From Kineococcus radiotolerans SRS30216 = ATCC BAA-149 (GTDB taxonomy: Bacteria > Actinomycetota > Actinomycetes > Actinomycetales > Kineococcaceae), in contig NC_009806.1 of assembly GCF_000017305.1 (NCBI RefSeq), positions 90,001-122,000 of the forward strand: a stretch of DNA of 32,000 bases. Reading direction: 5' to 3'. Each line of letters begins with the position of its first letter. Position 1 is the first letter of the stretch. The position numbers were made by a program, and so were the translations under genes. Of this stretch, positions 601-22,545 are shown piece after piece. Under the pieces are notes generated by a model. It did not search any database. It had not been told where the DNA came from and saw only the letters and a program-made list of their open reading frames with translations.

Positions 601-2076
601 CTATCCCAGGGCGCTCCTGCCTTCACCCGCGAGCGCCGGGGCCTCCAGATCCCGGAGATCAAGAGGGGCGTGTGCATCGCCCCCGAAGGGACGGGGGCCT
701 CGCGCGGGAGTGGCTTCTGGTGCCTGCGAGCGGCGGGGGCGCAGACGCGAACGCAGTGACGCCAGGAGCAGCGGCGGGGTGAACAGCGCAATCGGGTGTG
801 ACATCAGGTGCGTCACGGCCTGCATGACGTCCGCGGCCCGATCATTGCCCTGGCCAGCAAGGCGGGCCACCTCCGAACCCCACCATCCGACGACCGCCTC
901 GACCGGGCGTGCGCGTTGGGGAGTGGTGAGCAGCTGACGATCCTGCGACGTCGCCATCGTCCACGGCAGGTCAGCGGTACGCGCCAAGCCGCGCTGGAGG
1001 CGACGGGTGTTCAGCCGGCCCCCCTGGGCCTTCATGAACGACCGCTCCAGCAGCAGCCCCTGGCAGGCCGCCACGGTGATGCCGGAGCCGTAGACGGGGT
1101 TCAGCGCGCAGAGAGCGTCGCCGGTCACGAGCAGCCCCGCGGGCCAACGACGCGACTTGCCGTAGTGGTGGCGGACGTTGGCGGTCTGTCGGTGGACGAC
1201 GACGTCGCTGACGGGGGTCATGCCCTTGACCATGTCCAAGGCCATCGGGTCCGGCAGCTTGGCCAGGTGCTCCAGGAACTCCTCACCGTCACGGCTGGGC
1301 CGGTCCTCACCGCGGCCCACGGTCGTGACCTGCCAGTAGCCGTCCTCGACGGGACTCACGATGCACCCGCGGCTCTGCCTGGCCGAGGCGAGCATCAGGA
1401 CTCCGGGCCCTGGAGGACGGGGGCTGGTGAAGCGTCGGGTGGCGTAGCCGACGCGGGCGTCGATCGTCGTAGTCGGCACCGGCGGCAGGCCGAGTCCCTT
1501 CAGCCACGTCGGCAGCCGGGAGGAGCGTCCCGAGGCGTCGATCACGAGGTCGGCGGCGAGGGAGTGCTCACCTCCAGGTGAAGAGGAATGGTCCGTCGGC
1601 TGCAGCTGGATGGTCCAGGCGCCTGACGGGTCCTGGTGCAGGGCCTGCACGCGCGTCTGCTCGAGGACCCGCACGTTGGGCAGGGCCAGGACGCGCTTCC
1701 TGATCACGTGCTCCAGCAGGGTCCTCGAGGAGCAGACCAGGGGGTAGCCGTAGTCGCCGCGTGGTGCCCAGCCGTCGGCGCTGAGCAGGGCCATGCGTCC
1801 GACCTTGAACTCCGGGGCGCCGCGCTGGATGAGCTCATCGTGCAGGCCGGGGAGCAGGTGCTCGGCGGAGAGCAGTCCGCGGTGCAGCAGGATGTGGGTC
1901 TGCTCGCTCTGCGGCACCCCTCGTCGTGCTTGTGGGGTGGTCGGGATGCCGTCGCGTTCGATGATCGTCACCTGGTGACCGGCGTTCGCGGCTGCGGCGG
2001 CGGCGAACAGGCCGGCCAGGCTCGCTCCGATGACGCTGGTGCTGAGGGGCTTGGGGTGGGGCTGGGGGTGCTGCAT
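601..2076 (-). CDS. FAD-dependent monooxygenase/oxidoreductase (class A flavoprotein-like)
   Basis: N-terminal Rossmann fingerprint VIGASLAGLFAAAAAANAGHQVTIIERD. Also LVIDASGRSS, and the C-terminal motif GDALCALNPVYGSGITVA. ATG at 2076 is preceded by GGAGG (2086-2090). The ORF stays open up to GTG 2139, which overlaps the upstream stop. Confidence 0.8.
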   Translation of the reverse strand: MQHPQPHPKPLSTSVIGASLAGLFAAAAAANAGHQVTIIERDGIPTTPQARRGVPQSEQTHILLHRGLLSAEHLLPGLHDELIQRGAPEFKVGRMALLSADGWAPRGDYGYPLVCSSRTLLEHVIRKRVLALPNVRVLEQTRVQALHQDPSGAWTIQLQPTDHSSSPGGEHSLAADLVIDASGRSSRLPTWLKGLGLPPVPTTTIDARVGYATRRFTSPRPPGPGVLMLASARQSRGCIVSPVEDGYWQVTTVGRGEDRPSRDGEEFLEHLAKLPDPMALDMVKGMTPVSDVVVHRQTANVRHHYGKSRRWPAGLLVTGDALCALNPVYGSGITVAACQGLLLERSFMKAQGGRLNTRRLQRGLARTADLPWTMATSQDRQLLTTPQRARPVEAVVGWWGSEVARLAGQGNDRAADVMQAVTHLMSHPIALFTPPLLLASLRSRLRPRRSQAPEATPARGPRPFGGDAHAPLDLRDLEAPALAGEGRSALG

Positions 2077-2135
2077 CGTTGCCTCCGAGGTGGGGGTCGA
2101 CAGCGGGCGGGGATCCAGGGCCACGTCCATCGCCA

Positions 2136-3605
2136 TCACTCGACCATCTCAACGAAACCGGCGGTGCCGGCTTCGAGAACGTCGTGGTCTTGAACCTCAC
2201 GCCACAGCAGGCGCAGGTAGGCGACCGCCTCGTCCACGTCACGAGGGCTGAGCGTTAGAACCGGCGTCGCCTGCGAGGAGATGCCGCGCTCGTCCCGCAG
2301 GTCCGACCCAGCGGTGTGGAACTGCAGGGCGGCGCTCGCGGACGCTGCGTCGGCACGTGCGTTGCGCTGCAGCGGCTTCTCTGTGATCTGACGCCACCAC
2401 CGGCTCGCCAGGATAGGTGCGAACCCGCCGACGACCGACAGGACTGATCGTGCGGCGGCGGCCGTCACGCGGCCGGTCCGCTGACGGACGGTGGACTTCG
2501 ACCGGCGACCCAGGAGCTGCTCGATGCGTCGACGGGCTTGGGGGGTGAGGTCGTCCGCGGCCTGGATCAGCGCCTCCATGATGTCGCTGGCCATGCGGGC
2601 GCGCTGGGCGTACAACTCGTCACGGCTGGTCTTGGTGGTCTGGTCGGTCTCTAGCTCGTAGGCGGTTCGGTAGACGCCTTGAAGCAGCCGCCACGGCGCT
2701 CTCATCGCCACCACGTCCTCCCGCCACAGCTGCGTGAAGAACTCCGCGCTTCGGGCTCGGACGTTCTCTACGAAGGGGGCTGTGCTGGAGCCCAGGAGCA
2801 GCAGGAGCGGCGTGGCGATCTGACACGCCATCTGGGCTACCGCGGCTTGCTTCGGCGTCCACCTGGGCCGCCCCTGCATCCAGGTGTAGGCCTGCACGGT
2901 CTGGATGAGGATGACGCCCTGGTTGACCACACTGCCGATGGCGACCAGGCGCAGGCTGACCCGTACGGCCGGGTCTGGCTCGCGGCGGGCCTCGTTCCAG
3001 CACGAGAAGAACAAGGTGGCGGCCTGGAAGGGCCCGCAGATCTGCGGGCCGAGGGCAGCCACGAAGCCTGCGACGTCTGGGGAGTAGTAGGTGACGTACT
3101 CCTGCAGGTTGCGCGGCCGAGGTCGCGGCCGCTGCACCAGCCACGGCACGATGGTCAACAGCGAGCACCCGATGACCGAGGCGTGGTTGATCCGTGTGAG
3201 GCGGGTGGTCCAGCGCCCGGTCCGGCGTGGGGGCTGCAGGGTGTGGATGATCGCGTCGGTCGCGCTCATACCCGCCGCGGTCATCAGGACGGTGCTGATG
3301 ACCCAGGGCACCCCCGGCGCGGTGAGTCGCTCCACCCGCTGCACGACGGGACGGACGTTGAAGAACGAAGCGGTAGTGACGCCCGCGATGGCGAACCACT
3401 GCGCCCGCTGAGCTCGGCGGCCGATGGCCACCAGGTCGTCTTCGCTGACGGTCTCGCTCGGACTGGGCTGAGCCAGGGACACAGCCCGCAGCTGCTCCGG
3501 GGTCATCTTCCCCGTCAGCAGGTCACGCAACGCGATGCCGGCTCCGACCCCGAGCACGAAGGCGCCGGCCGGAGCCCAGCCGATGACCTTAGCCAGCCGA
3601 CTCAT
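2136..3605 (-). CDS. polytopic membrane protein with cytoplasmic helical C-terminal domain (MAB_1171c/DUF6545-like putative transporter)
   Basis: About 8 hydrophobic segments are followed by a charged helical tail (FFTQLWREDVVAMRAPWRLLQGVYRTAYELE...). ATG 3605 has a GGGGGAG Shine-Dalgarno and overlaps the upstream stop by 17 nt. The family call is from memory of actinobacterial annotations. Confidence 0.6.
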   Translation of the reverse strand: MSRLAKVIGWAPAGAFVLGVGAGIALRDLLTGKMTPEQLRAVSLAQPSPSETVSEDDLVAIGRRAQRAQWFAIAGVTTASFFNVRPVVQRVERLTAPGVPWVISTVLMTAAGMSATDAIIHTLQPPRRTGRWTTRLTRINHASVIGCSLLTIVPWLVQRPRPRPRNLQEYVTYYSPDVAGFVAALGPQICGPFQAATLFFSCWNEARREPDPAVRVSLRLVAIGSVVNQGVILIQTVQAYTWMQGRPRWTPKQAAVAQMACQIATPLLLLLGSSTAPFVENVRARSAEFFTQLWREDVVAMRAPWRLLQGVYRTAYELETDQTTKTSRDELYAQRARMASDIMEALIQAADDLTPQARRRIEQLLGRRSKSTVRQRTGRVTAAAARSVLSVVGGFAPILASRWWRQITEKPLQRNARADAASASAALQFHTAGSDLRDERGISSQATPVLTLSPRDVDEAVAYLRLLWREVQDHDVLEAGTAGFVEMVE

Positions 3606-4263
3606 CGGTGCTCCCCCGCCGGGTGACGAACAGGCCCAGACCCGAGGCGGGAGGAAGCTCCCTCTGCTGCATCCACGGCGCCATGTAGTGCTGCAGGAGG
3701 CCGGCGGTCCACTCGACCTCTCGCTCCTCATCGTCTTCGACGTTGCAGTGGAACTGGATGGCCTTCTCGTCGTAGAGGTCAACGCCCTCGGGGAGGTCGG
3801 CGTTGACGGGCAGGTTCAGGCCGTCGAGACGCTGTTCACCATCTGCGGCCCTGACGGGGATCACCTGGGAGACGACCCGGAGCTCATCGCGCGGGGTGAC
3901 GATGAGGTGGGCCAGCTCGTGCAGCAGGACGCGTTTGCCGCGCATCGAGCGCTTGGGGTCCTCAGGGATCCAGACGAGGATGCTCCGGCGCTCCGGGTCG
4001 CGGTCCACGAGGGCGGAGACCTTGGCGGGCAGGTGCAGCAGTCGGCCGTGCTGGCCTCGCTGGGTGATCTTGATGGGGCGCCCTTCCTGCTTGCGCAGGG
4101 TGGTCAGCAGGCGGCGCAGGGAGATACCAGGGTGCACACCCAGGTCCTCCAGGCGCTGCACGCACCGCTGATCGCGTGCCGCGGTGCTGTCGTCGACGCT
4201 GCTTCTTGCTGCCGGCCCGAGGGGAGACGGCTCGTCGAGGTCTCGGCCCGTGAGCTCGTCCAC
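3589..4263 (-). CDS. HExxH zinc-metallopeptidase-like protein (ImmA/IrrE, COG2856-like)
   Basis: HELAH is encoded at 3907-3921. It lies immediately downstream of an XRE-type regulator, the classic COG2856 context. GTG 4263 is preceded by GGAGGGA; the ORF is open up to GTG 4293. Confidence 0.6.
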   Translation of the reverse strand: MDELTGRDLDEPSPLGPAARSSVDDSTAARDQRCVQRLEDLGVHPGISLRRLLTTLRKQEGRPIKITQRGQHGRLLHLPAKVSALVDRDPERRSILVWIPEDPKRSMRGKRVLLHELAHLIVTPRDELRVVSQVIPVRAADGEQRLDGLNLPVNADLPEGVDLYDEKAIQFHCNVEDDEEREVEWTAGLLQHYMAPWMQQRELPPASGLGLFVTRRGSTDESAG

Positions 4264-4426
4264 GCGTTGATCCCTCCAGGTCGTCGAGGCCACGTCAGCC
4301 CAGTTCGCACTGAAGGCGGCGTGGTCAGCTCTGTCCTTCTACGCGGACATCCTGGCACCGACCGGTGACGCCGCCCACTCAACTGCTTGATGCTTGAAGC
4401 AGCGTTGCGAGACGGGAGCCGCGGAA

Positions 4427-5242
4427 CTAGCGATCCCGCGGCTCGTCCTTGCCGAAGTCCTCAGCGTCTCGAAGGGCACTGTCGATGAGTGCGTTGACCA
4501 TGTTGAGTTCTCGCTGACTGAGGTTGCGCGCCCGCATAGCGATGCTGGCCACACGGTCATTTTCGAGAGCATCAAGAGTCCTCAACCGCCTGTTCATCTC
4601 TTCCAGCGTTTTGTCGTCTTGGAAGAAATACCCGGGCCACACACCGAAGATTTTCGCCAGGCATTCGATCTGCTGCATGTTGGGACTTTTTTTGATTCCG
4701 CGCCGCAGGTCGTGCAGGTAACCCACCGACAGCGCGACGCCATGCTCTTTCGCAGCCGCACTGACCTGGCGCATGCTCCATGGCTGCCCGTCAGGGCGGA
4801 CCCTCAGGTTGAACAGGTACTCGAGGCGGGCCGCGAGGTTGGCCTGAGAGTCGACTGCGTACACGACCCCGTCCGACACGTTCGAGGGATCAGGCCCACC
4901 ATGGGCCGAGTCCGCAGCTTGCTCGTGATCGGCAGCGGCAGACGACGTCTGGTCGGGAATGGGGTCGAAGAAGAACCCAGCTTTGACCCCAAAGAAGGCG
5001 GCCAGAGCCCGAAGGGTGTCCGCCGTCGGGTTGCGTTTGGTGCCCTCGCGCAAAGCGGTGATGTACTCGGCACTGAGCCCCTCGACCTGAATCGCAGTGG
5101 CGACCTGTTCTTCGGTGACGAGATTGCCCTCACCGTCGCGGTAGCCGCGCAGCAGATAATCGAGGGCGCGAGCAATTGTCGGCCGATCCTGGTCATTCCC
5201 GCGTTGCGCCACTGTTTTCCCCCGCCATTGTGACTTGTTCAT
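4427..5242 (-). CDS. tandem (2x) HTH XRE-family regulator, EspR-like modules
   Basis: There are two consecutive HTH modules. The second (LAARLEYLF...SVGYLHDLRRGIKKSPNMQQIECLAKIFGVWPGYFFQDD...VASIAMRARNLS) aligns along its length with remembered M. tuberculosis EspR (FAARLNRLF...SAPYLSQLRSGNRTNPS...LANFFRIKAAYFTDD...RIAQRAHGL). The first has the same core (LSAEYITALREGTKRNPTADTLRALAAFFGVKAGFFFD). Confidence 0.8.
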   Translation of the reverse strand: MNKSQWRGKTVAQRGNDQDRPTIARALDYLLRGYRDGEGNLVTEEQVATAIQVEGLSAEYITALREGTKRNPTADTLRALAAFFGVKAGFFFDPIPDQTSSAAADHEQAADSAHGGPDPSNVSDGVVYAVDSQANLAARLEYLFNLRVRPDGQPWSMRQVSAAAKEHGVALSVGYLHDLRRGIKKSPNMQQIECLAKIFGVWPGYFFQDDKTLEEMNRRLRTLDALENDRVASIAMRARNLSQRELNMVNALIDSALRDAEDFGKDEPRDR

Positions 5243-5371
5243 CGGCGCCTATGACCGGTCGCGTCCATCGTCGTCGATTCTTGAGCAGCACGGTGCCGGA
5301 ACCGTATCGGATCGACCTCGAGCCCACCCGTTGCAGCGACAAGCCGCCTCCACCGACCAGGGCGCCGCGGT

Positions 5372-5414
5372 CCACCAGGCCCGACGGGCCCACCAGGCCC
5401 GACGGGCCCACCAG
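5372..5414. repeat. 18-bp tandem repeat CCACCAGGCCCGACGGGC x2.4 in the divergent control region
   Basis: Exact copies at 5372-5389 and 5390-5407, with a partial third copy to 5414. It lies in the 458-bp gap between divergent starts 5242(-) and 5701(+). Confidence 0.85.
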
Positions 5415-5700
5415 CGGAGGCGGCAGCAACGTCGACTCCCTCCAAGGCGTTCGCGATGCGAACACGCAGACTAGGCGTGTGGTCCACACCATGGTTTCAT
5501 AGCTCCGTGGCTCACGGAAGCAGGACGCTAGACACCGACCCAGAGTCGTCGCCGCCGGCGCGCTGAGACCGGGGCCTGCGCCGCTGAGCGGTCGACGAGC
5601 AGGCCGAGATCCGATCTGCACTCGGCAGACACCAGACCACGCCTCCTCCCCGCAGGACCAGGAAGCCCACAGTGGGAACGCCAGGAAGGATCACCGCCTC

Positions 5701-6315
5701 ATGTCGTTGCCTACCGCGTTGCCCAGCTCATCGACGACCGGGGACCCGGCGACCGCGACGTCGGCGGCCGCAGAGCCCCTCCAGAGCGTCGCCACCCAGG
5801 GCGGGACGGCCAGCACCGCAGACTTCACCCTCGACAGCGGCGTGGCTGAGCAGTGCCGGCAGATGGTCCAGTCCATCCAGCTGCCCCGGCCGCTGACGAT
5901 GCGCAACCTCATCCAGTCCGTGGCGACCCAGCTCGGCGTGCGCATCCGCGCGCACGAGCAGTCCTTGACCGACCCTGAGGTCTCAGGGGTCATCACCCAG
6001 AAGAAGTCCGGTCTCATCATCGTCAGCTGGCCCCAGGACTACGAGAAGACCCACCCCTGGTGGACGGCCCTGTGCGTGGGTCACGAGCTGGGTCACCTGA
6101 TGTGCAACCACCTGGCCAAGAAGCCGCAGTACAGCCGCTGCCAGATCGGTGTGAGTGTCGCCGACAACGCCGATGAGGCTGCGGCGGAATACTTCGGCAC
6201 CCTGCTGGCCGAACGTATCGAAGCGCAGGAAACCACTACCGGTTGGCGCCGGGTCATCGACCTGCGCGACCAGGACAACGTGGCAGGCAACTTCACCCGG
6301 CTGCTGCGTGGGTGA
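5701..6315 (+). CDS. HExxH zinc-metallopeptidase-like protein (ImmA/IrrE-like), paralog of 3589-4263
   Basis: GHELGHLMCNH is encoded at 6079-6111. The upstream pattern (L..L....G..I...I.W.P.D....L.HEL.HL) matches the other HExxH protein. GGAAGGA lies upstream of ATG 5701. Confidence 0.6.
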   Translation: MSLPTALPSSSTTGDPATATSAAAEPLQSVATQGGTASTADFTLDSGVAEQCRQMVQSIQLPRPLTMRNLIQSVATQLGVRIRAHEQSLTDPEVSGVITQKKSGLIIVSWPQDYEKTHPWWTALCVGHELGHLMCNHLAKKPQYSRCQIGVSVADNADEAAAEYFGTLLAERIEAQETTTGWRRVIDLRDQDNVAGNFTRLLRG

Positions 6316-7822
6316 CCTGGGCTCGCTCAACGTGACCGGGATCGTCTCCGTCCTGGCCGTCACAGCCCTCGCCGCCTGGCTGCTCGCCGATACCTACCGC
6401 GCTCGCGTCCACGTCAAGCGGCAACGGCGCCCCTCAGAGCACCCCGCCAGCGAGCAGCTCACCGGCAACCAGGGTGCGGGCGATGGGCGCGCCATCGACC
6501 TGCACGGCAGCTCCTCCATCGCGGTCGCCCCCGAGTCCAAGATCGCGCATCGCGGATCCGAGAACGGAACCACGGCCACGAAGCGCCGCGACAGCGGCAG
6601 CGACCAGGGACACGTCGCCGATCACCAAGCCCGACGCATGCTGTGGTGGACCGTGGGTGCCCTCACCCTGGGAGCCGTGGTTCAGACTGGCCCGATCCGC
6701 GCCGTGATCGACCAGGCCTACCTGGGATGGAGCAAGGCGCTCATGCACCTGTTCGGCGCCTTGGCCGCCGGGTGCCTTCTGCAGTTGCTGCGTCTCCTGC
6801 TGGGCCTTTGCCCCCGGCGCCGTCGCTGGCTGAACAACGCCATGGCCATCACCACCGTGCTGGTGGTGATGCCCCTTCTCCTCCAGCCCCCACGCACTCC
6901 ACACCTGTTCGAGCCCACCTGGGCCGCGGTCGCGCACTGGGTCGCCTCGCTGGCCCTGCTCTCCTGGTCTCTGGGCGCTACCTCAACCGCGTGCTTCGGC
7001 ATCGCCGCGCGCGCTGAAGCCCGCGCCGCCGGAGTGGGCATGCGCCTGGTCGCCTCCGGTTGCCTGATCGGTCTTGGCTACGTCGCGACCTGCTTGGCCC
7101 TGCTCGCCTACGCCCTCATCACCGGCAGCACGCCACCCCTGGCGCACGGCACCGGGCTGGATGTCACGCTGCAGCAGCTCGCCGAGGTCGTCATCGTGAT
7201 CGGTCTCGTGTGGACCAGCTTCGACCGCCTCCTGCACCGCTTCCTGGGCCGAGAACGACGGCGAGCGGGCCGGGCCGAACGCAAGCGCTGGCTGGTCGAG
7301 CACATCCACCTTGTCGTGGGCCGGCGCCGTCAGGAACGCCACTTCCACCGGCTGCTGCTCGAACTGGAGGACATCCGGCCGTGGTGGTCGGCGCTGGCCG
7401 AGTCGATGCCTCAGCTGGTCCACTTCCCCCAGCAGACGGCCGCCGCGCCGGCCAACGCCACCGACGCCGGGTTCCAGCGTCGGCGCATGATGTCGGAGAT
7501 CCACGACATCGAGCGAATCGCCGTGGCCTACGTCGACCACGACGACCACGAGCAGATTCGCTCGCTGGCTCTTGCTCATGGCCTGCGTGCCGGGGCCCAG
7601 CTCGACATCGTGGTGTGGCAGGCCTGCGTGCTACTCGGCCTCGAGCGCTACCGCGCTCGCGCACCGCGCAGCCCCCTCCCCCTGGAAGTCCCCGCCCCGC
7701 GCGGGGCCAGCCTGGCCGAGGCCACCACCATGCTCAGCCACGCCCTGCACGGTGTGCACCCCCTACGTGAGCGGCTCCTGCAGGTCCTGCACGACAACGC
7801 GATGATCACTTCCCGGAGGTAA
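6308..7822 (+). CDS. polytopic membrane protein with helical C-terminal domain (MAB_1171c/DUF6545-like), paralog of 2136-3605
   Basis: Multiple TM segments (TGIVSVLAVTALAAWLL, LMHLFGALAAGCLLQLLRLLLGL, AMAITTVLVVMPLLL, and others) are followed by a charged helical tail (RKRWLVEHIHLVVGRRRQERHFHRLLLELEDIRPWW). GTG 6308 overlaps the upstream TGA (6313-6315). An alternative GTG lies at 6332. The ORF is open from 6155 but overlaps the upstream CDS there. Confidence 0.6.
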   Translation: MGDLGSLNVTGIVSVLAVTALAAWLLADTYRARVHVKRQRRPSEHPASEQLTGNQGAGDGRAIDLHGSSSIAVAPESKIAHRGSENGTTATKRRDSGSDQGHVADHQARRMLWWTVGALTLGAVVQTGPIRAVIDQAYLGWSKALMHLFGALAAGCLLQLLRLLLGLCPRRRRWLNNAMAITTVLVVMPLLLQPPRTPHLFEPTWAAVAHWVASLALLSWSLGATSTACFGIAARAEARAAGVGMRLVASGCLIGLGYVATCLALLAYALITGSTPPLAHGTGLDVTLQQLAEVVIVIGLVWTSFDRLLHRFLGRERRRAGRAERKRWLVEHIHLVVGRRRQERHFHRLLLELEDIRPWWSALAESMPQLVHFPQQTAAAPANATDAGFQRRRMMSEIHDIERIAVAYVDHDDHEQIRSLALAHGLRAGAQLDIVVWQACVLLGLERYRARAPRSPLPLEVPAPRGASLAEATTMLSHALHGVHPLRERLLQVLHDNAMITSRR

Positions 7823-7827
7823 CGATC

Positions 7828-8772
7828 ATGAACGCGCCTCAGTCAGCCGATGCCCGCCAGACGTCCACCGGCTCCACTCGCGCCCAGGACGCCCAGGACG
7901 CCCAGGACACCCAGGACCTGCGCAGCGGCCAGCACCCCGACGGGCTCGTCACCCCGCAGGTCCTGAGCCCGCAGCGGCTCGCCGAGGTCAACGAGGTCTA
8001 CCGCCGCCTGGCGCTCGCGGAGTTCGCCACGGAAAGCCGCATCGGCTTCCACCTGGCCTACTTGCGCACCTTCGCCTCCCCTCGCGTAGCCGGCTTGCTC
8101 AGTCACACCGGGCAGATGCAGAAGGAGCCGCGTCGGCGCGGCACCGACACCGGCCTGTTCATGTACGAGTTGATCCACCACGGCCTGGGCAGCGAGGTGG
8201 GTGATGAGGTGGTGCGACGGCTCAACGGGATGCACCACCGCTTCTCCATCCGCAACGAGGACTACGTCTGGATCCTGGGGACCTTCGTGGTGCTCGGGGT
8301 GCGTACGATTCGCCGCTTCGGGTGGCGAGAGCTGACCGTCTTCGAGGAGCAGGCCAGCATCGACTGGTACCGCGAACTGGCCGCTCGCATGGACCTGACC
8401 GACGTGCCGGAGACCTTCGAGGAGTTCGACCGCTGGTTCAGCGACTACGAACAGACGCAGCTGCGCTCTTCTCCGGCCGGTCGACAACTGATTGCAGCGA
8501 CTCTGGACACCGTCTTCGACCCCGTACCGACTCCTTTGCGCCCCTTGGCGGTACGGGCAGCGGCGGTGCTGCTAGAGGAGCCGGCGCGTTCCGCGCTCGG
8601 GTTCGCAGCGCCCGGGCCGATCGTGCGGACTGCAGTGCACGCGCTGTTCCGGTTGCGAGCGCTGCGACGGCGGCGACAGCCGACACCGCCGAGCTGGTTC
8701 AAGCCGGGAGCAGCCACCAGCGTGTACCCGCAGGGGTACGGGCTGAACGACTTGGGGCCCCGCACGCAGTGA
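7828..8772 (+). CDS. MpaB/DUF2236-family oxygenase-like protein
   Basis: LAYLRTFASPRVAGLLSHTGQM...RRGTDTGLFMYELIHHGL...RRLNGMHHRFSIRNEDYVWILGTFVV...GWRELTVFEEQA...DVPETFEEFDRWF matches the remembered consensus of oxygenase MpaB-family proteins. GGAGG lies 8 nt upstream, and the gap to the upstream gene is 5 nt. Confidence 0.55.
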   Translation: MNAPQSADARQTSTGSTRAQDAQDAQDTQDLRSGQHPDGLVTPQVLSPQRLAEVNEVYRRLALAEFATESRIGFHLAYLRTFASPRVAGLLSHTGQMQKEPRRRGTDTGLFMYELIHHGLGSEVGDEVVRRLNGMHHRFSIRNEDYVWILGTFVVLGVRTIRRFGWRELTVFEEQASIDWYRELAARMDLTDVPETFEEFDRWFSDYEQTQLRSSPAGRQLIAATLDTVFDPVPTPLRPLAVRAAAVLLEEPARSALGFAAPGPIVRTAVHALFRLRALRRRRQPTPPSWFKPGAATSVYPQGYGLNDLGPRTQ

Positions 8773-9407: not shown

Positions 9408-11099
9408 ATGAGGCCAGCACCGTGGAAGGTCCGCCCCGTCCCGACCGTGTGGCTGGACTACGCCACCGGCGTCGGGGTCACCGACAGCGGTGCCCGGATC
9501 ACCCCGAAGATCACCGGACGACGCAAGCGGCCTGTCCTGGTCGACCTCCTCGACACCGCCCACAACCTCTCTGCCGAGCGGATCATGCTGACCGGGAGGA
9601 TTCCCCAGCAGAGCCTAGGCGAGCAGCACTGGCTCATCACCGAGACCCCCGGCTGGAGCGCCGGCGGGCACTGGCTCTCCAGCCCGCCCACCGGCCGCTT
9701 CACCCACGGCATCACCGGCCGCAAGCTGGAAGTGCGCCTGGCCTCGGAGTGGTTCACCTCCCCTGACGACTCGCTGACCCCTGACGAGGCGCGCCAGGCC
9801 TGGGTGGCTACGTCCGAAGCGTTGAAGTCCGTCGCCCGCGACGCGGAGCTGCTGAAGTCCCCCGCTGCCACGGGGACGCAGATGTGGGCGCAGTCCCTGC
9901 CCCGCACCCTGGACCCCGAACCCCTCGACCCCGACACCGCCGAGCTGCTGCACCGCACCGCCGGGCAGCACCGCATCGAGCACCTCACCACCGGCGCCGC
10001 TGCCTGCGCGTGTGGGGCCTGCCGCCCGCTGGTGGACGTGGGTGAGCAACCCCGCGGTGGGTTCGCCTACGTCGACGGCCGGTTCATGTACGCCTCCTTG
10101 TGCCGTGAGCTCGGCACCGGCCCCGCGCGGCGGTTGACCGGGGACCAAGCCGAGGACCTGCTGCAGTCCAACCCCTACGCCCGCGCCCGCTTCCACGTTC
10201 GCTTCACCGTTCCCGAGGGCTGGAACACGCTTGGAGCGCTCCCCGTCGCCCATGACGACGCAGACGAGGGGTGGCACTACCCCAACGTCCCCGGCGCCGG
10301 CGGGCAGACCTGGGTCGACGGGGTCGAACTGAAGATCGCCCTCGACCATGGCTGGGGCATCGAGTTCCTCGAGGGCATCGAGTTCACCAAGGCCCGCGTC
10401 CTAGACACCTGGGCCGACCGGCTGCGCCGCGCCCGCGAGCGCCTGGCCCAGGCCCAAGACCTGCCGCCGACGGTGCGCGGGGCCGCCGTCAGCGCCATGC
10501 GCGCCATCCTCATCCAGGGCATCGGTGCGTTCGCCTCCCGCGGCCGGGAGACCACGCAGGTGGTGTGGTCCGCGCGGGAGGTGCCCGCCGAGGCCGCCTC
10601 GACGCTGGTGCGGCACGGGGAGGCGTTCGTGTTCCGCACCCGCGCCCCGCGTCCGCAGGGCCAGGCCGCGGCGCTGTACCGACCGGAGCTGGCTGCGCAG
10701 GTGTGGTCGCGCGGTCGGGCGCGGGTGCTGGAGTGCCCCACCGCGCTGTCGAAGCGTCTGCCCGGGGTCGGCCTGACGCGCCTGGGAGGTGCGTTGGAGG
10801 TCGACCCCGCGACGTTGCTGGCGGTCAACGGCGACGCCATCTACACCACCGAGATCCCGACGTGGTCGCTGCCGGTCGCCACGGGTGGTGGCGACGACGG
10901 TGAGGTCGGGCGGATGCGCCTGCAGGGGTGGCTGCCGGCGGTGAAGCTGCCGACGACGGTAGCGGAACGCAACCGGCTGCGGCAGCGCGCCGAGGCAGCC
11001 GGGCCGGGAACGGCCACCTCGCCGCAGTCCGCTGCGATCACGGCCGACACGGCCGGGGATCCGGCTGTCGAGGTCGTCGCGGAGGTGGCCGGTGCCTGA
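9408..11099 (+). CDS. orphan protein with family-B (protein-primed type) DNA-polymerase-like motif series
   Basis: AGGAG (9396-9400) lies 7 nt before ATG 9408. Motifs occur in polymerase order. ExoI-like WLDYAT at 9450-9467. ExoII-like HNLSAE at 9561-9578. ExoIII-like TPDEARQAWVATS at 9777-9815. Pre-A HRTAGQHRIE at 9951-9980. Motif A-like YVDGRFMYAS at 10068-10097. VELKIALDHGWGIEF at 10323-10367. Motif B-like MRAILIQGIGAFAS at 10497-10538. Motif C-like VNGDAIYT at 10824-10847. Coding status is solid. The functional call is an eye alignment against remembered phi29/PF03175 motifs. Confidence 0.45.
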   Translation: MRPAPWKVRPVPTVWLDYATGVGVTDSGARITPKITGRRKRPVLVDLLDTAHNLSAERIMLTGRIPQQSLGEQHWLITETPGWSAGGHWLSSPPTGRFTHGITGRKLEVRLASEWFTSPDDSLTPDEARQAWVATSEALKSVARDAELLKSPAATGTQMWAQSLPRTLDPEPLDPDTAELLHRTAGQHRIEHLTTGAAACACGACRPLVDVGEQPRGGFAYVDGRFMYASLCRELGTGPARRLTGDQAEDLLQSNPYARARFHVRFTVPEGWNTLGALPVAHDDADEGWHYPNVPGAGGQTWVDGVELKIALDHGWGIEFLEGIEFTKARVLDTWADRLRRARERLAQAQDLPPTVRGAAVSAMRAILIQGIGAFASRGRETTQVVWSAREVPAEAASTLVRHGEAFVFRTRAPRPQGQAAALYRPELAAQVWSRGRARVLECPTALSKRLPGVGLTRLGGALEVDPATLLAVNGDAIYTTEIPTWSLPVATGGGDDGEVGRMRLQGWLPAVKLPTTVAERNRLRQRAEAAGPGTATSPQSAAITADTAGDPAVEVVAEVAGA

Positions 11100-11856
11100 C
11101 CAGTCGACGCCCACCGCGGCCGACCTGATCGCCGATCTGCGCGCCTACGGGCTCAGCATCAGCGAGATCGCCCGCGAGCTCGGCCGCTCGCCCCGCATGG
11201 TCCGCAAGGTGGTGCAGGGAGAGAGCAGCGGGCAGCTGTACGTCGCCGCCCTCAGCGAGCTGGCCCGGACCGGACGCGCTCAGGCGCAACCGGCGCGCCG
11301 ACGCGGGCGGGATGGCCAGCTCATGCGCGTGCGCGCACCGCGAGGAGCTTCCGAGCCGACTCGCCGTCCAGAGGAGGGCACGGAAGCCCAGAAGTCCGGG
11401 ACTGCTGGGCAGCCTCCGGCGTCCCGCGCTGGCGCTGGTGCGGGCCAGCCCTCGCCGACTCCAGGTGGACGAGCGGGGCGGTCCGGGGGCTTCAGCGACA
11501 GCACGACGTACTTGCCGGGTGGGGTGCGCCAGCACACGGTGACGGCACCTCGCAGTGAGGGAACCGGCCGGGAGAGGGCCCGCCAGCGACTGCTCGAGAC
11601 GTTGCGCCGTGCCGCGCGCAGCCAACGAGGGGGTCGCAAGAACGTGCGCTTCCGCGTCACCTTGAAGAACGGCACGACGGTGGAGGTCGGCGCCAAGGGC
11701 GGCTACGCCGTCTCGAAGGCGCTCGCGCGCTCGCGCAGCGAGGGTGACGACCCATTCGCCTGGTTGGCCGGAGAGGTAGCGGATCGGCAGTACCTGCAGA
11801 AGGCGCTGTCGCGGGAGGACCTGAGCATCGTTGGAGTCGAGGCCACGATCTACTGA
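11092..11856 (+). CDS. HTH DNA-binding protein with arginine-rich central region
   Basis: GTG 11092 overlaps the upstream TGA (GTGCCTGA) and has GGAGG 6 nt upstream. HTH-like LSISEIARELGRSPRMVRKVV at 11152-11214. A basic, low-complexity middle is followed by a structured C-terminus (RFRVTLKNGTTVEVGAKGGYAVSKAL...) that ends in Tyr. Confidence 0.6.
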   Translation: MPDQSTPTAADLIADLRAYGLSISEIARELGRSPRMVRKVVQGESSGQLYVAALSELARTGRAQAQPARRRGRDGQLMRVRAPRGASEPTRRPEEGTEAQKSGTAGQPPASRAGAGAGQPSPTPGGRAGRSGGFSDSTTYLPGGVRQHTVTAPRSEGTGRERARQRLLETLRRAARSQRGGRKNVRFRVTLKNGTTVEVGAKGGYAVSKALARSRSEGDDPFAWLAGEVADRQYLQKALSREDLSIVGVEATIY

Positions 11857-13772: not shown

Positions 13773-16208
13773 TCAGCTGCCTTGGTAGTGCGGGAGCTCA
13801 GCGAAGGCGGATGGCGCAGTGGCCTGCCCGTCCTTGCGTCGTCCTCGACCGTACTTGCTCTTGGTGGTCACGCTTGGTGCAGTCGCCGCCGCAGCGGGGC
13901 GGATCGTCGGAAGCTGCGCGGGACCGTTGTCCCCCGAACCTGCGGGCGTCGCATGGCGGTCGGGGGTGGGTCGGAACCCGTTGGCGAGGAAGCCGGCGAT
14001 GCGCAGGTAGGCCTCGTTCACGTCGGCGTCCAGGGTTTCGTAGTCGACGTGCACGCCGTCGGCGAGACGCGCGGAGTACGGAATGAGAACCGTCGCCCGG
14101 CAACGCCTCTGGAAGTGACCGATGAGGGTCTCCACGTGCACTCCCCCGTTGCGGGCCGCCTTGGCCAGTGTCCCGTCCTTGGTCGTGCGGGTGACCATGG
14201 CGACCACGGCTTCACGTGCGAGGCGTTCATGGCCCAGGTCCTCCAGACGGTCTAGGACCTTCCGGCTGCGATCCACGGCGTCCATGCTGGTGCCGGTGAC
14301 TACGACGACGTCGGTGGCGGTCTGAAGCACCTCGGGCATGTCGCGTAGCCCGGAGCTGCCCAGGTCGGTGATGACGACGTCGTGGAACTTGCTGAGCAGT
14401 TCGAGGGCCTCGCGGTGCTGCTGAGCGGTGAACGAGCGGCTGTGGTCGGCGCTGTAGATGTCCAGCCGCTTGGCGCTGCGGGCGTAGCGGCGCAGCTCGA
14501 CGACGGAGTCCACCGCGCCGTGCTGGTGCTCGTCCAGCAGGTCTTGCAGGAACCGGTCGGCGGGGGTGGCGAAGCGATCTGCGAGGTTGCCGGCCGTCTG
14601 GTCGGCGTCGATGACGGCGACGCGGTCGTCTCGGTGCTCGGCGAACTGCAACCCGATGGCGCCGGTGGTCAGCGTCTTGCCCACGCCCGTCCCGTACGCC
14701 AGGACGACGATGTGCCGGTTGCCGTCCAGCGGGGTCCGGACACGGTAGATCTCGTGGTCGCGTTCGGCCTGGCGGGCGCTCGGGGGCGGCTGGACTCGTC
14801 CCAGGGTCAGCTTCATGACGGCGCTGCGCCACCCCCCGTCGGGCATGGCGTGCACCGGGGAGAGGACAGGGGCTGCATCGCGCAGCTCGGCGTCACGGAC
14901 CTGCTGCACGAAGGTGGCGGTGTCGATGACGGCACCCGGGACACTCGCCTGAGGCGCTACCACCTCGCGGCCGGGAGCACTGACCACCGCCTCCCCGGCG
15001 GCCTGGGCTGCAGGTACCGCGGTCTTCGGGGTGTCCGGGGTGTCCGGACCCTTCGGGGCGGGCGTGGACGCCGGCGACGAGGCGGCGCTGACGATGGCCT
15101 GCGTCTCCTCCGGATGGATGGAGGGGCCTGACGCCGCGGGGGTGTCGGAGGCGGCTTCAGCGTCGGTGGAGCCAGCCGGTGCGGGCATCACCGGCGTGGC
15201 GGGTTCGTCGAGGTCGTCGGTGGCACCCGGAGCAGTCGGGGCCGGAGTCGTGGGGGGCGGCGTGGGCACCTGAGCCGGGAGCAGCGTCGCACCCTGCCAG
15301 AGGAAGACCGGGGCTGGCGGCAGCGGAGCAGGTTCGTGGGCCTCGCTCACCGATGGAGCGAAGAGCGGTCCGGTGGGCTGCTGCAGCTGGTGGGCGCTGT
15401 CAGAGGTGGTGGCCGTTCGGCCGCGTCGCGCACGTGTTCGAGAGGCGGGCAGACTCTCCGCCGCGAGGGCGCTCGCCGGATCGCTCTGCTCGCCGGCCTC
15501 CTCCTCGGCCTGCTCATCGGCCTGCGCCGTGTTGACCGCCTGAGTGGGCAGGTGAGCGCGTGCCCCGTTGAGGCCGGCCCGCTCCCCACCGTGCGCGTGA
15601 TCCTGGACGTCGGTAGTGAGGCGCTGCTCCACCGCCGGCGGGGTGCCCTGGGGCTCACCGGTCTCGATCGGTGCGTCCTCCTCGCCCGCGTCTTCCTCGC
15701 CCGCGTCGGAAGCGATCATGTCGCGGCCGCTGGCGGCGATGGCGGGGCCCTTGTCGACGCCGTCAACGACGTCGACGACATCGACGACGGTGGCGATGCT
15801 GCGGGCGCTCATTGCCTCGGCGGCTTCCTGAACCGATGAGGCTCCGTCGGCGTCCTGGAGCCGTCCGGGCTGGCCCTCCTCATCGCTGAGGAACGATGCG
15901 AGCAGCTCGTCGTACTCGAGGTCGCCGGCCGTCCAGTCCGCCGATGCGGGTGTCGACGACTGCGCCGAGGCGACCTCAGCGGTCACCTGGACTGCAGACG
16001 CTGTCGTGGGGGTGTCCGATCCGGCTTCCTCGGCTGGCGTCCGCAGCGTCTCCGTCGCTCCTGCGTCCTCCTCGGTCGCCGGGGGACGCAGCGGGGTGCC
16101 ACGCCGGAGACGACGGACGGGGCGCTCAGGGCGCGTCCGTGCAGGCGCTCGCTGCTCGGTGACGGTGATCGCGTCGACTTCGGTGGTGGCGTTGCTCAAG
16201 TGGTTCAT
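13773..16208 (-). CDS. ParA/MinD-family ATPase with long Pro/Ala/Thr/Glu-rich disordered N-terminus (EspI-like architecture)
   Basis: The C-terminal domain reads GGWRSAVMKLTLGRV...HIVVLAYGTGVGKTLTTGAIGL...RVAVIDADQTAGNL...VVITDLG...HFQRRCRATVLIPYSARLADG...AYLRIAGFLANGF. This parallels the remembered EspI/Rv3876-type MinD/ParA family. The first 430 aa or so are low complexity. Confidence 0.8.
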   Translation of the reverse strand: MNHLSNATTEVDAITVTEQRAPARTRPERPVRRLRRGTPLRPPATEEDAGATETLRTPAEEAGSDTPTTASAVQVTAEVASAQSSTPASADWTAGDLEYDELLASFLSDEEGQPGRLQDADGASSVQEAAEAMSARSIATVVDVVDVVDGVDKGPAIAASGRDMIASDAGEEDAGEEDAPIETGEPQGTPPAVEQRLTTDVQDHAHGGERAGLNGARAHLPTQAVNTAQADEQAEEEAGEQSDPASALAAESLPASRTRARRGRTATTSDSAHQLQQPTGPLFAPSVSEAHEPAPLPPAPVFLWQGATLLPAQVPTPPPTTPAPTAPGATDDLDEPATPVMPAPAGSTDAEAASDTPAASGPSIHPEETQAIVSAASSPASTPAPKGPDTPDTPKTAVPAAQAAGEAVVSAPGREVVAPQASVPGAVIDTATFVQQVRDAELRDAAPVLSPVHAMPDGGWRSAVMKLTLGRVQPPPSARQAERDHEIYRVRTPLDGNRHIVVLAYGTGVGKTLTTGAIGLQFAEHRDDRVAVIDADQTAGNLADRFATPADRFLQDLLDEHQHGAVDSVVELRRYARSAKRLDIYSADHSRSFTAQQHREALELLSKFHDVVITDLGSSGLRDMPEVLQTATDVVVVTGTSMDAVDRSRKVLDRLEDLGHERLAREAVVAMVTRTTKDGTLAKAARNGGVHVETLIGHFQRRCRATVLIPYSARLADGVHVDYETLDADVNEAYLRIAGFLANGFRPTPDRHATPAGSGDNGPAQLPTIRPAAAATAPSVTTKSKYGRGRRKDGQATAPSAFAELPHYQGS

Positions 16209-16570: not shown

Positions 16571-16654
16571 CGATAGCCTCCATGCGTCGCACGAGCACGG
16601 AGCGACCGGCGCAACGACGTGCGACGGCAGAGGATCAGACCCGGGGGGGCGTAC

Positions 16655-17125
16655 ATGAGCACGGCATCCGCGACGCCTGAGGATCCTGACGCCCAGGCGG
16701 CAGCCGCCGACGACGGCCTGGTAGGCCGCCGCAACGACCTCATCATCCAGCGGATCAGCCAGCTCCTGAACAGCCCCCATCCAGAGACCGGCACGGTGCT
16801 GCAGGGCAAGGAGGTCACCGCCCGCGCCCAGGCGCGTGGGCAGAGCCTCAGCACCAGCTACGTCCTCGGCCTGCGATCGGCTAACCGCGGGGTCCCCAGC
16901 GTGCACGTCCTCCAACTGCTGGCCGACATCTACGGCGTCAACCTGAACTTCTTCGCCTCCCAGCGCACCCCCGACGACTTCCGCGCAGACCTGAAGCTGC
17001 AGGCAGTGCTCGACGACCACGAGGCCCGCGCCCTGTTCCTCCGCGCCGCCGACCTCAGCGCTCCCGCCAAGGAGAACCTCGCAGCCATCATCGAGGACAT
17101 GCTGCGCGAGAACCCCGACGAGTAG
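16655..17125 (+). CDS. EspR-like HTH (XRE-family) DNA-binding protein
   Basis: LIIQRISQLLNSPHPETG...SLSTSYVLGLRSANRGVPSVHVLQLLADIYGVNLNFFASQ...ARALFLRAADLS...IIEDMLRE follows the EspR pattern. ATG 16655 follows a G-rich Shine-Dalgarno. The ORF is open from 16619. Confidence 0.75.
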   Translation: MSTASATPEDPDAQAAAADDGLVGRRNDLIIQRISQLLNSPHPETGTVLQGKEVTARAQARGQSLSTSYVLGLRSANRGVPSVHVLQLLADIYGVNLNFFASQRTPDDFRADLKLQAVLDDHEARALFLRAADLSAPAKENLAAIIEDMLRENPDE

Positions 17126-22465: not shown

Positions 22466-22477
22466 GGCTCGTCTCCA

Positions 22478-22510
22478 GACAAGGGGATGACAAGGGGATG
22501 ACAAGGGGAG
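22478..22510. repeat. 3 head-to-tail copies of 11-bp GACAAGGGGAT/G in the 5' leader of the GH6 gene
   Basis: Copies at 22478-22488, 22489-22499 and 22500-22510 (the last base differs). They lie between the terminator hairpin and the RBS/ATG of the minus-strand gene. Confidence 0.85.
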
Positions 22511-22545
22511 ACCGCCCACCGCAGAGGCTGCAGGTGGGCGGTCTC
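22508..22545 (-). terminator. 13-bp-arm hairpin downstream of the GH26-like gene
   Basis: GAGACCGCCCACC (22508-22520) pairs with GGTGGGCGGTCTC (22533-22545). The loop GCAGAGGCTGCA can extend the stem. It lies 41 nt after the stop at 22586 (minus strand). Confidence 0.55.

Follow-up and report, generated by a model that had tools for sequence, protein, structure and literature searches.

A doubled, divergent plasmid version of a predicted actinobacterial XRE, M78-type peptidase and DUF6545 operon with oxygenase cargo

Two gene strings that run away from one intergenic region, each with an HExxH-motif protein, a polytopic membrane protein and an oxygenase, raise the question of what such a combination does and how it is controlled. 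They lie in a 32-kb stretch of DNA (the window in what follows; L-numbers denote related contigs and loci retrieved for comparison) that most likely belongs to the linear plasmid pKRAD01 of Kineococcus radiotolerans. Set A consists of an XRE-family regulator, the protein HExxH-A, membrane protein A and a flavin adenine dinucleotide (FAD)-dependent monooxygenase; set B, on the opposite strand, consists of HExxH-B, membrane protein B and an oxygenase of another class. Judged by gene families and gene order, the same type of operon occurs in the genomes of Streptomyces, Kitasatospora, Allokutzneria and Kibdelosporangium; the locus is the plasmid counterpart of that operon, and its core logic is probably that of the familiar protease-gated repressor. 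The reading we favour, though we hold it tentatively, is a protease-gated repressor switch that receives its signal through the membrane protein and controls an oxygenase attacking C=C bonds of hydrophobic molecules. The preliminary description of this DNA, drawn up from the sequence without database searches, knew of no characterised function for the peptidase, membrane protein and oxygenase triad, and we likewise found no description of the operon in the open-access full-text literature, which was searched with no model-organism orthologue name to go by.

One genome per species was scanned with a 16-sequence set-B-like alignment, and all counts of loci given here are among the matches listed. 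At least 13 loci were returned. The order XRE, HExxH, MAB_1171c/DUF6545 was found in 10/10 actinobacterial loci with flanks (from Streptomyces, Kitasatospora, Allokutzneria, Kibdelosporangium, Streptantibioticus and one Actinomycetota metagenome-assembled genome, MAG) and again in at least four independent metagenome loci of high guanine-plus-cytosine (GC) content, which brings the total to 14/14 listed loci with flanks. The XRE gene is directly upstream of the peptidase gene in these 14 related loci and in set A, and the 8-nt overlap between the end of the HExxH-B gene and the start of membrane gene B is one of nine such overlaps (the window included). The linkage that the preliminary description had expected to recur is therefore conserved in other actinobacterial genomes, which speaks against a chance arrangement, and the system is not confined to this locus, since the operon is also present on Streptomyces-type genomes. 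Between Streptomyces, Kitasatospora and a MAG the XRE proteins of the chromosomal copies share 87-93% identity, and L019 is placed at 4.20 Mb on its 9.36-Mb chromosome; for these two reasons the chromosomal copies look vertically inherited, as far as protein identity and position can tell.

Assignment of the HExxH proteins to a peptidase family went through intermediate sequences. For HExxH-A and HExxH-B themselves no model matched in Pfam or NCBIfam, and a hypothetical protein of Kineococcus radiotolerans has the same sequence as HExxH-A (100% identity). A word-indexed homology search gave four relatives of HExxH-B and 13 of HExxH-A, to which a joint profile added none; an exhaustive HMMER search with the joint profile of both peptidase families (E <= 1e-3) gave 141 representative clusters, mostly of 165-200 aa. 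Peptidase_M78 was matched by 20 of the 61 relatives scanned (best 1.6e-5), and it is through these that the two proteins are linked to M78. Residues H128, E129, H132, E159 and E163 (set-B numbering) are invariant across the 61 sequences, whose consensus downstream of HExxH, ExEAExxAxLL, matches the COG2856 signature; in the set-A peptidase family H115, E116, H119, C173, E180 and E184 are invariant. Both window peptidases retain the catalytic HExxH motif and the downstream Glu zinc ligand, the latter in a helix of the pattern ExEA(N/E)xxAxxLL.

Structure prediction agrees for one of the two. The AlphaFold2 model of HExxH-B (mean predicted local distance difference test score, pLDDT, 77) has about 160 ordered residues in one folded domain, and Foldseek supports an M78 peptidase fold: the top match was CapP (7t5t, E 9.8e-4, probability 1.0), followed by PprI/IrrE (8slm, 0.97) and Mycobacterium tuberculosis PrpR (0.94-0.96), the matched part of PrpR being its M78-like domain. 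PADLOC returned capP for HExxH-B at 5e-4. Links to solved structures were also sought by sequence and profiles; the candidates (BepA, snake-venom metalloproteases and others) were all non-significant and were dropped. On these sequence and model comparisons HExxH-A and HExxH-B are probably active, divergent, single-domain M78 peptidases. Both have a single folded domain of about 160 residues and are without the HTH-like (helix-turn-helix) linker and the GAF sensor domain of CapP/IrrE.

A loop cysteine stands 7-13 residues before the Glu motif in both window peptidases and in 29/61 relatives. In the HExxH-B model this residue, Cys147, is on a short predicted strand, 15 residues past the second His, and its place is equivalent to that of the zinc-binding Cys113 of CapP (the 'cysteine switch'), which is 13 residues past the second His. 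The parallel is one of position only, not a demonstrated mechanism.

Both membrane proteins are, by profile comparison, divergent members of the MAB_1171c/DUF6545 family. MAB_1171c_fam (NF042915) matched membrane protein A at 8.7e-9 (34.9 bits) and B at 1.9e-8 (33.8 bits), scores that do not reach the curated cut-off of 100 bits; DUF6545 (PF20182) matched membrane protein B at 3.2e-6 (28.1 bits, above the gathering score of 24.4 bits). Membrane protein A had no direct DUF6545 match; it aligns to the family, including the RRxxEIxD motif (hhalign probability 95.9%), and is matched by the local family profile at 2e-9. Among 17 related membrane proteins, 16 match MAB_1171c_fam (best 5.3e-89) and 12 match DUF6545 (best 1e-37). 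Membrane protein B is 55-72% identical to its counterparts in L001 and L002. Hydropathy indicates about seven helices, and the strongly basic stretch past the last of them, read by the positive-inside pattern, points to an N-out, C-in arrangement in which the cytoplasmic tail measures about 190-215 aa (about 215 aa in membrane protein A). The cytoplasmic domain carries an invariant charged motif (W360, R393, E397, I398 and D400). Nothing was found in the Protein Data Bank (PDB) with the membrane-family profile, no enzyme motifs were recognised by Pfam, family scans and PDB search, and a literature search gave nothing on DUF6545. In L006 a pair of minus-strand genes (L006:6041-7296), placed opposite the set-A regulator, encodes an HExxH protein of 255 aa, which matches Peptidase_M78 at 9.5e-4, and, in an overlapping gene, a soluble protein of 165 aa with a weak DUF6545 match (3.1e-4, below the gathering score) that family profiles do not confirm; the pair may be a membrane-less version, which is a hint only.

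The membrane protein could instead be the output of the system, the XRE/M78 pair acting, in the manner of ImmR/ImmA, DdrO/IrrE and CapH/CapP, as a generic stress or DNA-damage switch over an envelope transporter or exporter and an enzyme that modifies the transported hydrophobic compound. NCBI names the MAB_1171c proteins 'putative transporter', and the sole experimental data found come from a MAB_1171c transposon mutant of Mycobacterium abscessus, which has lower clarithromycin and cefoxitin minimum inhibitory concentrations (MICs) and about 50% less biofilm (PMC8707978). Characterised M78 switches all respond to cytoplasmic signals, for example single-stranded DNA (ssDNA) or RapI, and the operon core occurs without an oxygenase in five loci listed below. 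Against an output role stand the missing ssDNA-binding GAF domain of the peptidases, the cytoplasmic domain of about 190 aa with its invariant charged motif, and the lack of similarity to solved transporters; a major facilitator superfamily (MFS) match was seen in only 1/17 related membrane proteins and is a stray. We regard this explanation, the main rival, as somewhat unlikely.

The set-A enzyme, encoded by the fourth gene, matches FAD_binding_3 (2.7e-11) and, in the PDB, MonCI at 1.1e-58 over residues 9-456 and LasC/Lsd18 at 2e-51; by this alignment it is a homologue of the MonCI/Lsd18-type flavin epoxidases, matched at full length. The set-B enzyme matches MPAB_Lcp_cat (PF09995) at 7.1e-17 (62.7 bits, cut-off 23), scores 7.6e-44 against a profile built from the fourth genes of the chromosomal operons, and is 80-83% identical to its counterparts in L001 and L002. 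The two terminal enzymes are unrelated to one another. An MpaB-like fourth gene is present in 10 sets (L007, L008, L012, L013, L017, L019 and L021, and set B of the window, L001 and L002), a MonCI/Lsd18-like FAD epoxidase in four set-A copies (window, L002, L004 and L006), and a cytochrome P450 (6.2e-30) in L020 (6957-8141), where it follows XRE, HExxH and DUF6545; in L010, L011, L015, L018 and L024 the fourth gene is absent or unrelated. The minus-strand genes of 308 aa that follow the membrane gene in L011 and L015 were considered as MpaB-like and rejected, having a weak HhH-GPD match instead. As classified by these family matches, the fourth gene is usually an oxygenase, from three unrelated classes. 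The families guessed in the preliminary description (a COG2856-like peptidase, DUF6545/MAB_1171c, PF09995 and an FAD monooxygenase) are those that the hidden Markov model and profile searches returned.

Three unrelated oxygenase classes in one slot would also suit a biosynthetic or remodelling unit, in which membrane protein and oxygenase would jointly produce or break down an envelope component or a signal derived from lipid, for example a carotenoid, quinone or isoprenoid in epoxidised or cleaved form, and XRE/M78 would provide feedback only. In biosynthesis MonCI and Lsd18 act on polyene chains as epoxidases (PMC10560226, PMC12144862), and PF09995 spans MpaB, which cleaves a prenyl chain, and the rubber oxygenase Lcp, which cleaves polyisoprene. 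This idea we consider very unlikely: no polyketide synthase (PKS), terpene synthase or other pathway genes were found in the 32-kb window, no PKS or epoxide-hydrolase genes of a polyether context were seen there or next to set A of L004 and L006, about 30% of loci do without the oxygenase, and the membrane protein is without recognisable enzyme motifs.

The two sets of the window are, at the sequence level, ancient and distant paralogues of about 20% identity, a relationship visible to profiles. BLASTP aligned 93 aa of HExxH-A and HExxH-B (E 0.002, 24% identity), their HExxH motifs falling opposite each other; hhalign aligned the two peptidase families at E 2.3e-4, and a set-B-like profile built without any set-A sequence matched HExxH-A at 1.4e-10. 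For the membrane proteins pairwise BLASTP gave nothing; hhalign of membrane family A against the set-B/MAB_1171c family gave a probability of 95.9% and E 6.4e-9 over 280 columns, a stretch that takes in the start of the cytoplasmic domain. Both paralogies had been predicted in the preliminary description, which had further taken the layout for a mirror-image duplication, and here the comparison goes the other way. Since the sets are only about 20% identical and each occurs alone on related contigs, the back-to-back layout was, on this sequence evidence, not produced by duplication in place. The whole mirror layout, and with it the juxtaposition of the two sets, was seen only in the window and L002/L003. 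Set B is alone in L001 and set A in L004, on an element with type IV secretion system (T4SS), relaxase and coupling-protein genes; L005, a short contig, begins set A in the same way, with regulator and HExxH-A, and in L006 set A is accompanied by another HExxH gene, which is divergently oriented. The contigs L001-L006 share a backbone of PolB-like (71-92% identical at the protein level), HTH, ParA-like and XRE genes with the window.

Such mobile surroundings could suggest a three-component toxin-antitoxin (TA), abortive-infection or plasmid-stabilisation module, with the membrane protein as toxic effector, XRE as antitoxin or repressor and the peptidase as trigger. Both sets are on plasmids or conjugative elements, GmrSD_C, DUF3644 and AAA_21 genes lie a few kb from set B in L001, CapP and CapH are the best structural and PADLOC neighbours, and XRE-COG2856 cassettes have been proposed as parts of three-component TA systems (PMC2701414). 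Yet PADLOC matched only the regulators (capH, capP and a weak RmrA) and was blank for membrane proteins and oxygenases, and no relative was found in IMG/VR. The chromosomal copies are in a core region with repressors about 90% identical between Streptomyces and Kitasatospora, which suggests vertical inheritance and not a defence island; it is hard to see what an oxygenase would do in a TA module, and a conserved seven-helix protein of 400-500 aa is unlike the known small pore-forming effectors. A TA or defence module is accordingly a very unlikely explanation in our judgement.

Control of the operon turns on the regulators. The set-A regulator matches HTH_3 (1.3e-7) and PADLOC capH (2.1e-7), and a local XRE profile that excluded it matches it at 1.8e-42. 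Its two halves each match a single-HTH paralogue (1e-10 and 8e-7), as the double HTH noted from the sequence would have it. The C-terminal half (about residues 133-271) can be aligned to the repressor that the widespread operon encodes, a single-HTH protein, and the alignment includes a conserved tail, ALxxxRVxxIAMRAxxL; the N-terminal half is the additional HTH copy, found also in set A alone of L004. A fusion of the repressors of both sets was ruled out as the origin of the double-HTH protein, because lone set A (L004, L005) already has the double HTH. Because it is on the same strand as set A and is conserved with it in L004-L006, the regulator belongs, on gene-order grounds, to the set-A operon; the one regulator around which the layout had been described is a set-A gene. 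The XRE gene nearest to set B in the window is this divergently placed regulator. The third XRE gene (Table 1) is divergent from a ParA-like gene (13773-16208), and its product is 55% identical to that of L001:18776-19288, which is equally distant there from the lone set B; it is a possible, though unproven, partner of the repressor-less set B.

Identity of the divergent intergenic region to L002/L003 is 72-78% in a core at about 5430-5530 and 33-55% in the flanks; the core holds the palindrome GTTCGCGATGCGAAC (5449-5463), which occurs once where chance would also give one. No sigma-70 consensus was found in the 458-bp region, and no motif was common to it and the 163-bp gap upstream of HExxH-A. 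A tandem 18-bp repeat (5377-5412), the unit of which contains the palindrome GGCCCGACGGGCC, is not conserved in L002/L003 and was on that ground rejected as an operator; a 99-aa open reading frame (ORF) called across the repeat in public assemblies is probably spurious. Palindromic boxes TCAACnnnnGTTGA and CAACGATCGTG and a block GTTCTATGATCCG are conserved about 100-250 bp upstream of the chromosomal XRE genes in six loci (L007, L008, L012, L013, L019 and L021), in DNA that is otherwise diverged. From this pattern of conservation the two boxes are candidate operators and the block a candidate promoter of the chromosomal operon, and the conserved palindromes would fit autoregulation.

In the characterised pairs CapP cleaves CapH, IrrE cleaves DdrO and ImmA cleaves ImmR, and characterised M78 peptidases cut the XRE partner in its C-terminal part, upon which the controlled genes are induced (PMC2701414). 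The switch that we favour would work along similar lines. The XRE protein would repress its own operon from the upstream region. The peptidase would be latent, and the loop Cys at the position of the CapP cysteine switch may keep the enzyme inactive. The seven-helix membrane protein, translated together with the peptidase, would pass a signal on by way of its DUF6545 tail in the cytoplasm; activation is placed there because the peptidase is without a GAF-type sensor domain. Once active, the peptidase would cleave the repressor in its conserved C-terminal tail, a putative cleavage, and induce the operon, and the oxygenase would then oxidise C=C bonds in a hydrophobic molecule associated with the membrane, for instance an isoprenoid, a polyene or an unsaturated lipid. 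We infer C=C oxidation because MonCI and Lsd18 epoxidise polyene chains and PF09995 covers cleavage of prenyl chains and polyisoprene. By analogy such a circuit would follow a split BlaR1/BlaI logic, and on the plasmid the two sets would be two channels with one common control region.

Several observations weigh against this protease-gated switch. Neither HExxH protein matched Peptidase_M78 (PF06114) directly at E <= 0.1, and the model of HExxH-A is poor (pLDDT 64), with the same fold matches below significance. Genes that overlap at stop and start are frequent in high-GC operons and are no proof of a complex of peptidase and membrane protein, and the transporter name and the M. abscessus phenotype fit an effector or exporter equally well. 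Set B is without a repressor gene of its own beside it, both in the window and in L001, unlike the chromosomal relatives, and a search of the 458-bp region gave no clear operator common to both promoters. About 30% of the listed loci have no oxygenase in the fourth position. Finally, the census began from the peptidase side and covers the membrane protein family only from there. A wider proposal goes further, and we think it unlikely: that XRE, M78 and DUF6545 form an unrecognised actinobacterial transmembrane pathway (a 'split BlaR1') in which a Cys-switch peptidase would be freed by a receptor to act on an XRE repressor, membrane-embedded alkenes (isoprenoids, polyenes, unsaturated lipids) sensed and interchangeable C=C-attacking oxygenases induced, with plasmids adding orthogonal channels.

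The gene layout (Table 1) was agreed by the ORF list, a gene caller based on GC at third codon positions (GC3) and public gene calls on identical assemblies. The seven gene positions and strands first reported hold, as do the 17-nt overlap between the end of the HExxH-A gene and the start of membrane gene A and the 5-nt gap before the set-B oxygenase. For the FAD gene the end at 601 stands and the start at 2076 does not: public calls begin at 2130 (509 aa), 5 nt past the stop of membrane gene A, and the start probably shifts there, 2076 being an alternative.

Table 1. Features of the window, with the two gene sets first and neighbouring genes after them
Feature	Position	Strand	Description	Evidence
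Set A gene 4	601-2130	-	FAD-dependent monooxygenase, MonCI and Lsd18/LasC homologue	FAD_binding_3, PDB sequence search
Set A gene 3	2136-3605	-	Polytopic membrane protein, 489 aa, divergent MAB_1171c/DUF6545	NF042915, hhalign, hydropathy
Set A gene 2	3589-4263	-	HExxH-A (HELAH), probable zinc peptidase, 224 aa, divergent M78/ImmA-IrrE	Motif, profile match
Set A gene 1	4427-5242	-	XRE-family regulator, two HTH copies, 271 aa	HTH_3, local XRE profile
Divergent intergenic region	5243-5700		458 bp, presumed promoter/operator	L002/L003 alignment
Set B gene 1	5701-6315	+	HExxH-B (HELGHLMCNH), probable zinc peptidase, 204 aa, divergent M78, disordered N-terminus	Motif, AlphaFold2/Foldseek
Set B gene 2	6308-7822	+	Membrane protein, 504 aa, about 7 helices, cytoplasmic DUF6545 tail	DUF6545, NF042915, hydropathy
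Set B gene 3	7828-8772	+	MpaB/Lcp-type oxygenase, 314 aa, start 5 nt past membrane gene B	PF09995
Third XRE regulator	16619-17125	+	Single HTH, same subfamily and same C-terminal tail	Local XRE profile 9.7e-18
PolB-like protein	9408-11099	+	Directly downstream of set B	Weak DNA_pol_B_2 match, 1.5e-3
HTH protein	11092-11856	+	Overlaps the PolB-like gene	
Large protein	19853-22519	-	C-terminal glycosyl hydrolase family 6 domain	8.4e-56
680-aa protein	22586-24628	-	No family assigned	62% identity to a gene adjoining T4SS genes in L004
ATPase	25220-28021	-	FtsK/SpoIIIE (TraB-like)	
Hexapeptide-repeat plus bactofilin protein	28398-30284	-		

The replicon is most likely pKRAD01 in view of the 100% match of HExxH-A, the 0.18-Mb linear plasmid present in K. 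radiotolerans (PMC2587704), identical gene strings in public data (three read assemblies) and the plasmid-typical genes of the window (ParA-like, FtsK/SpoIIIE and PolB-like). The GC content of the window is about 70%. PLSDB gave no relevant match by megablast with the locus or by tblastn with both membrane proteins, and the source plasmid is evidently missing from it. The PolB-like protein and the overlapping HTH protein are 72-92% identical in L001, L002 and L006, which exceeds the conservation of the set-B genes; they may be replication or telomere genes of a linear-plasmid family. The last three genes of Table 1 are a probable transfer or backbone block. Contigs that match the window identically extend the replicon to its left, where, some 6 kb past the FAD gene, they carry a gene for a DnaE-type DNA polymerase III alpha subunit (PHP, DNA_pol3_alpha; L025:15426 onward).

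Known M78/XRE switches serve prophages, integrative and conjugative elements, the Deinococcus radiation response and immune operons, with a cytoplasmic signal in all; here, both on plasmids and in the core chromosome of Streptomyces-type bacteria, a sensor-less M78 peptidase is always accompanied by a seven-helix protein. If the protease is fed by that membrane protein, the main antibiotic-producing phylum would have a new transmembrane signalling route, and DUF6545/MAB_1171c, a family tied to drug susceptibility and biofilm in M. abscessus, would have a first function. If it is not, the locus is still a conserved inducible oxygenase cassette.

Comparison with known systems places the parts as follows. 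Within MAB_1171c/DUF6545 the chromosomal relatives are full members, whereas the window proteins are outliers at 34-35 bits against a cut-off of 100. The reference enzymes MonCI/Lsd18 and MpaB/Lcp oxidise C=C bonds of long hydrophobic chains, as proposed here, but their contexts (polyketide synthesis, mycophenolate synthesis and rubber degradation) were not seen around the window oxygenases. BlaR1/BlaI and MecR1/MecI are a working analogy only: a polytopic sensor, a cytoplasmic HExxH protease that inactivates a repressor, and an induced detoxifying enzyme. In BlaR1 an M56 protease is part of the same polypeptide and beta-lactams are sensed by an extracellular domain, the repressor is a winged-helix and not an XRE protein, and homology was not detected (Foldseek probability 0.16 for the HExxH-B model against 8exq).

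ImmR/ImmA, of ICEBs1 and phage-like elements, resembles set A in having a small single-domain COG2856 peptidase beside an XRE repressor on a mobile element. The activating signal of ImmA is supplied in trans by another protein. ImmA has no known membrane partner or oxygenase, ImmR/ImmA control excision and transfer genes, and similarity between ImmA and the window peptidases was below detection in sequence and profile searches. CapH/CapP, regulators of CBASS and other immune operons, and DdrO/IrrE (PprI) of Deinococcus share with the window an XRE repressor and an HExxH M78 peptidase. CapP and IrrE have three domains (peptidase, HTH-like linker and GAF) and are activated by ssDNA, whereas the window proteins, of 204 and 224 aa, consist of a peptidase domain alone; cleavage of CapH and DdrO falls in the C-terminal part, and repressors of the window type have a conserved C-terminal tail in which cleavage is putative. 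CapH/CapP and DdrO/IrrE control immune or DNA-repair genes, whereas the operon described here carries oxygenases and always has a DUF6545 protein next in line. The XRE/M78 switch itself is known; in the open-access full text searched, no description turned up of the DUF6545 partner that is always present, of the oxygenase cargo or of the doubled, divergent arrangement on a plasmid.

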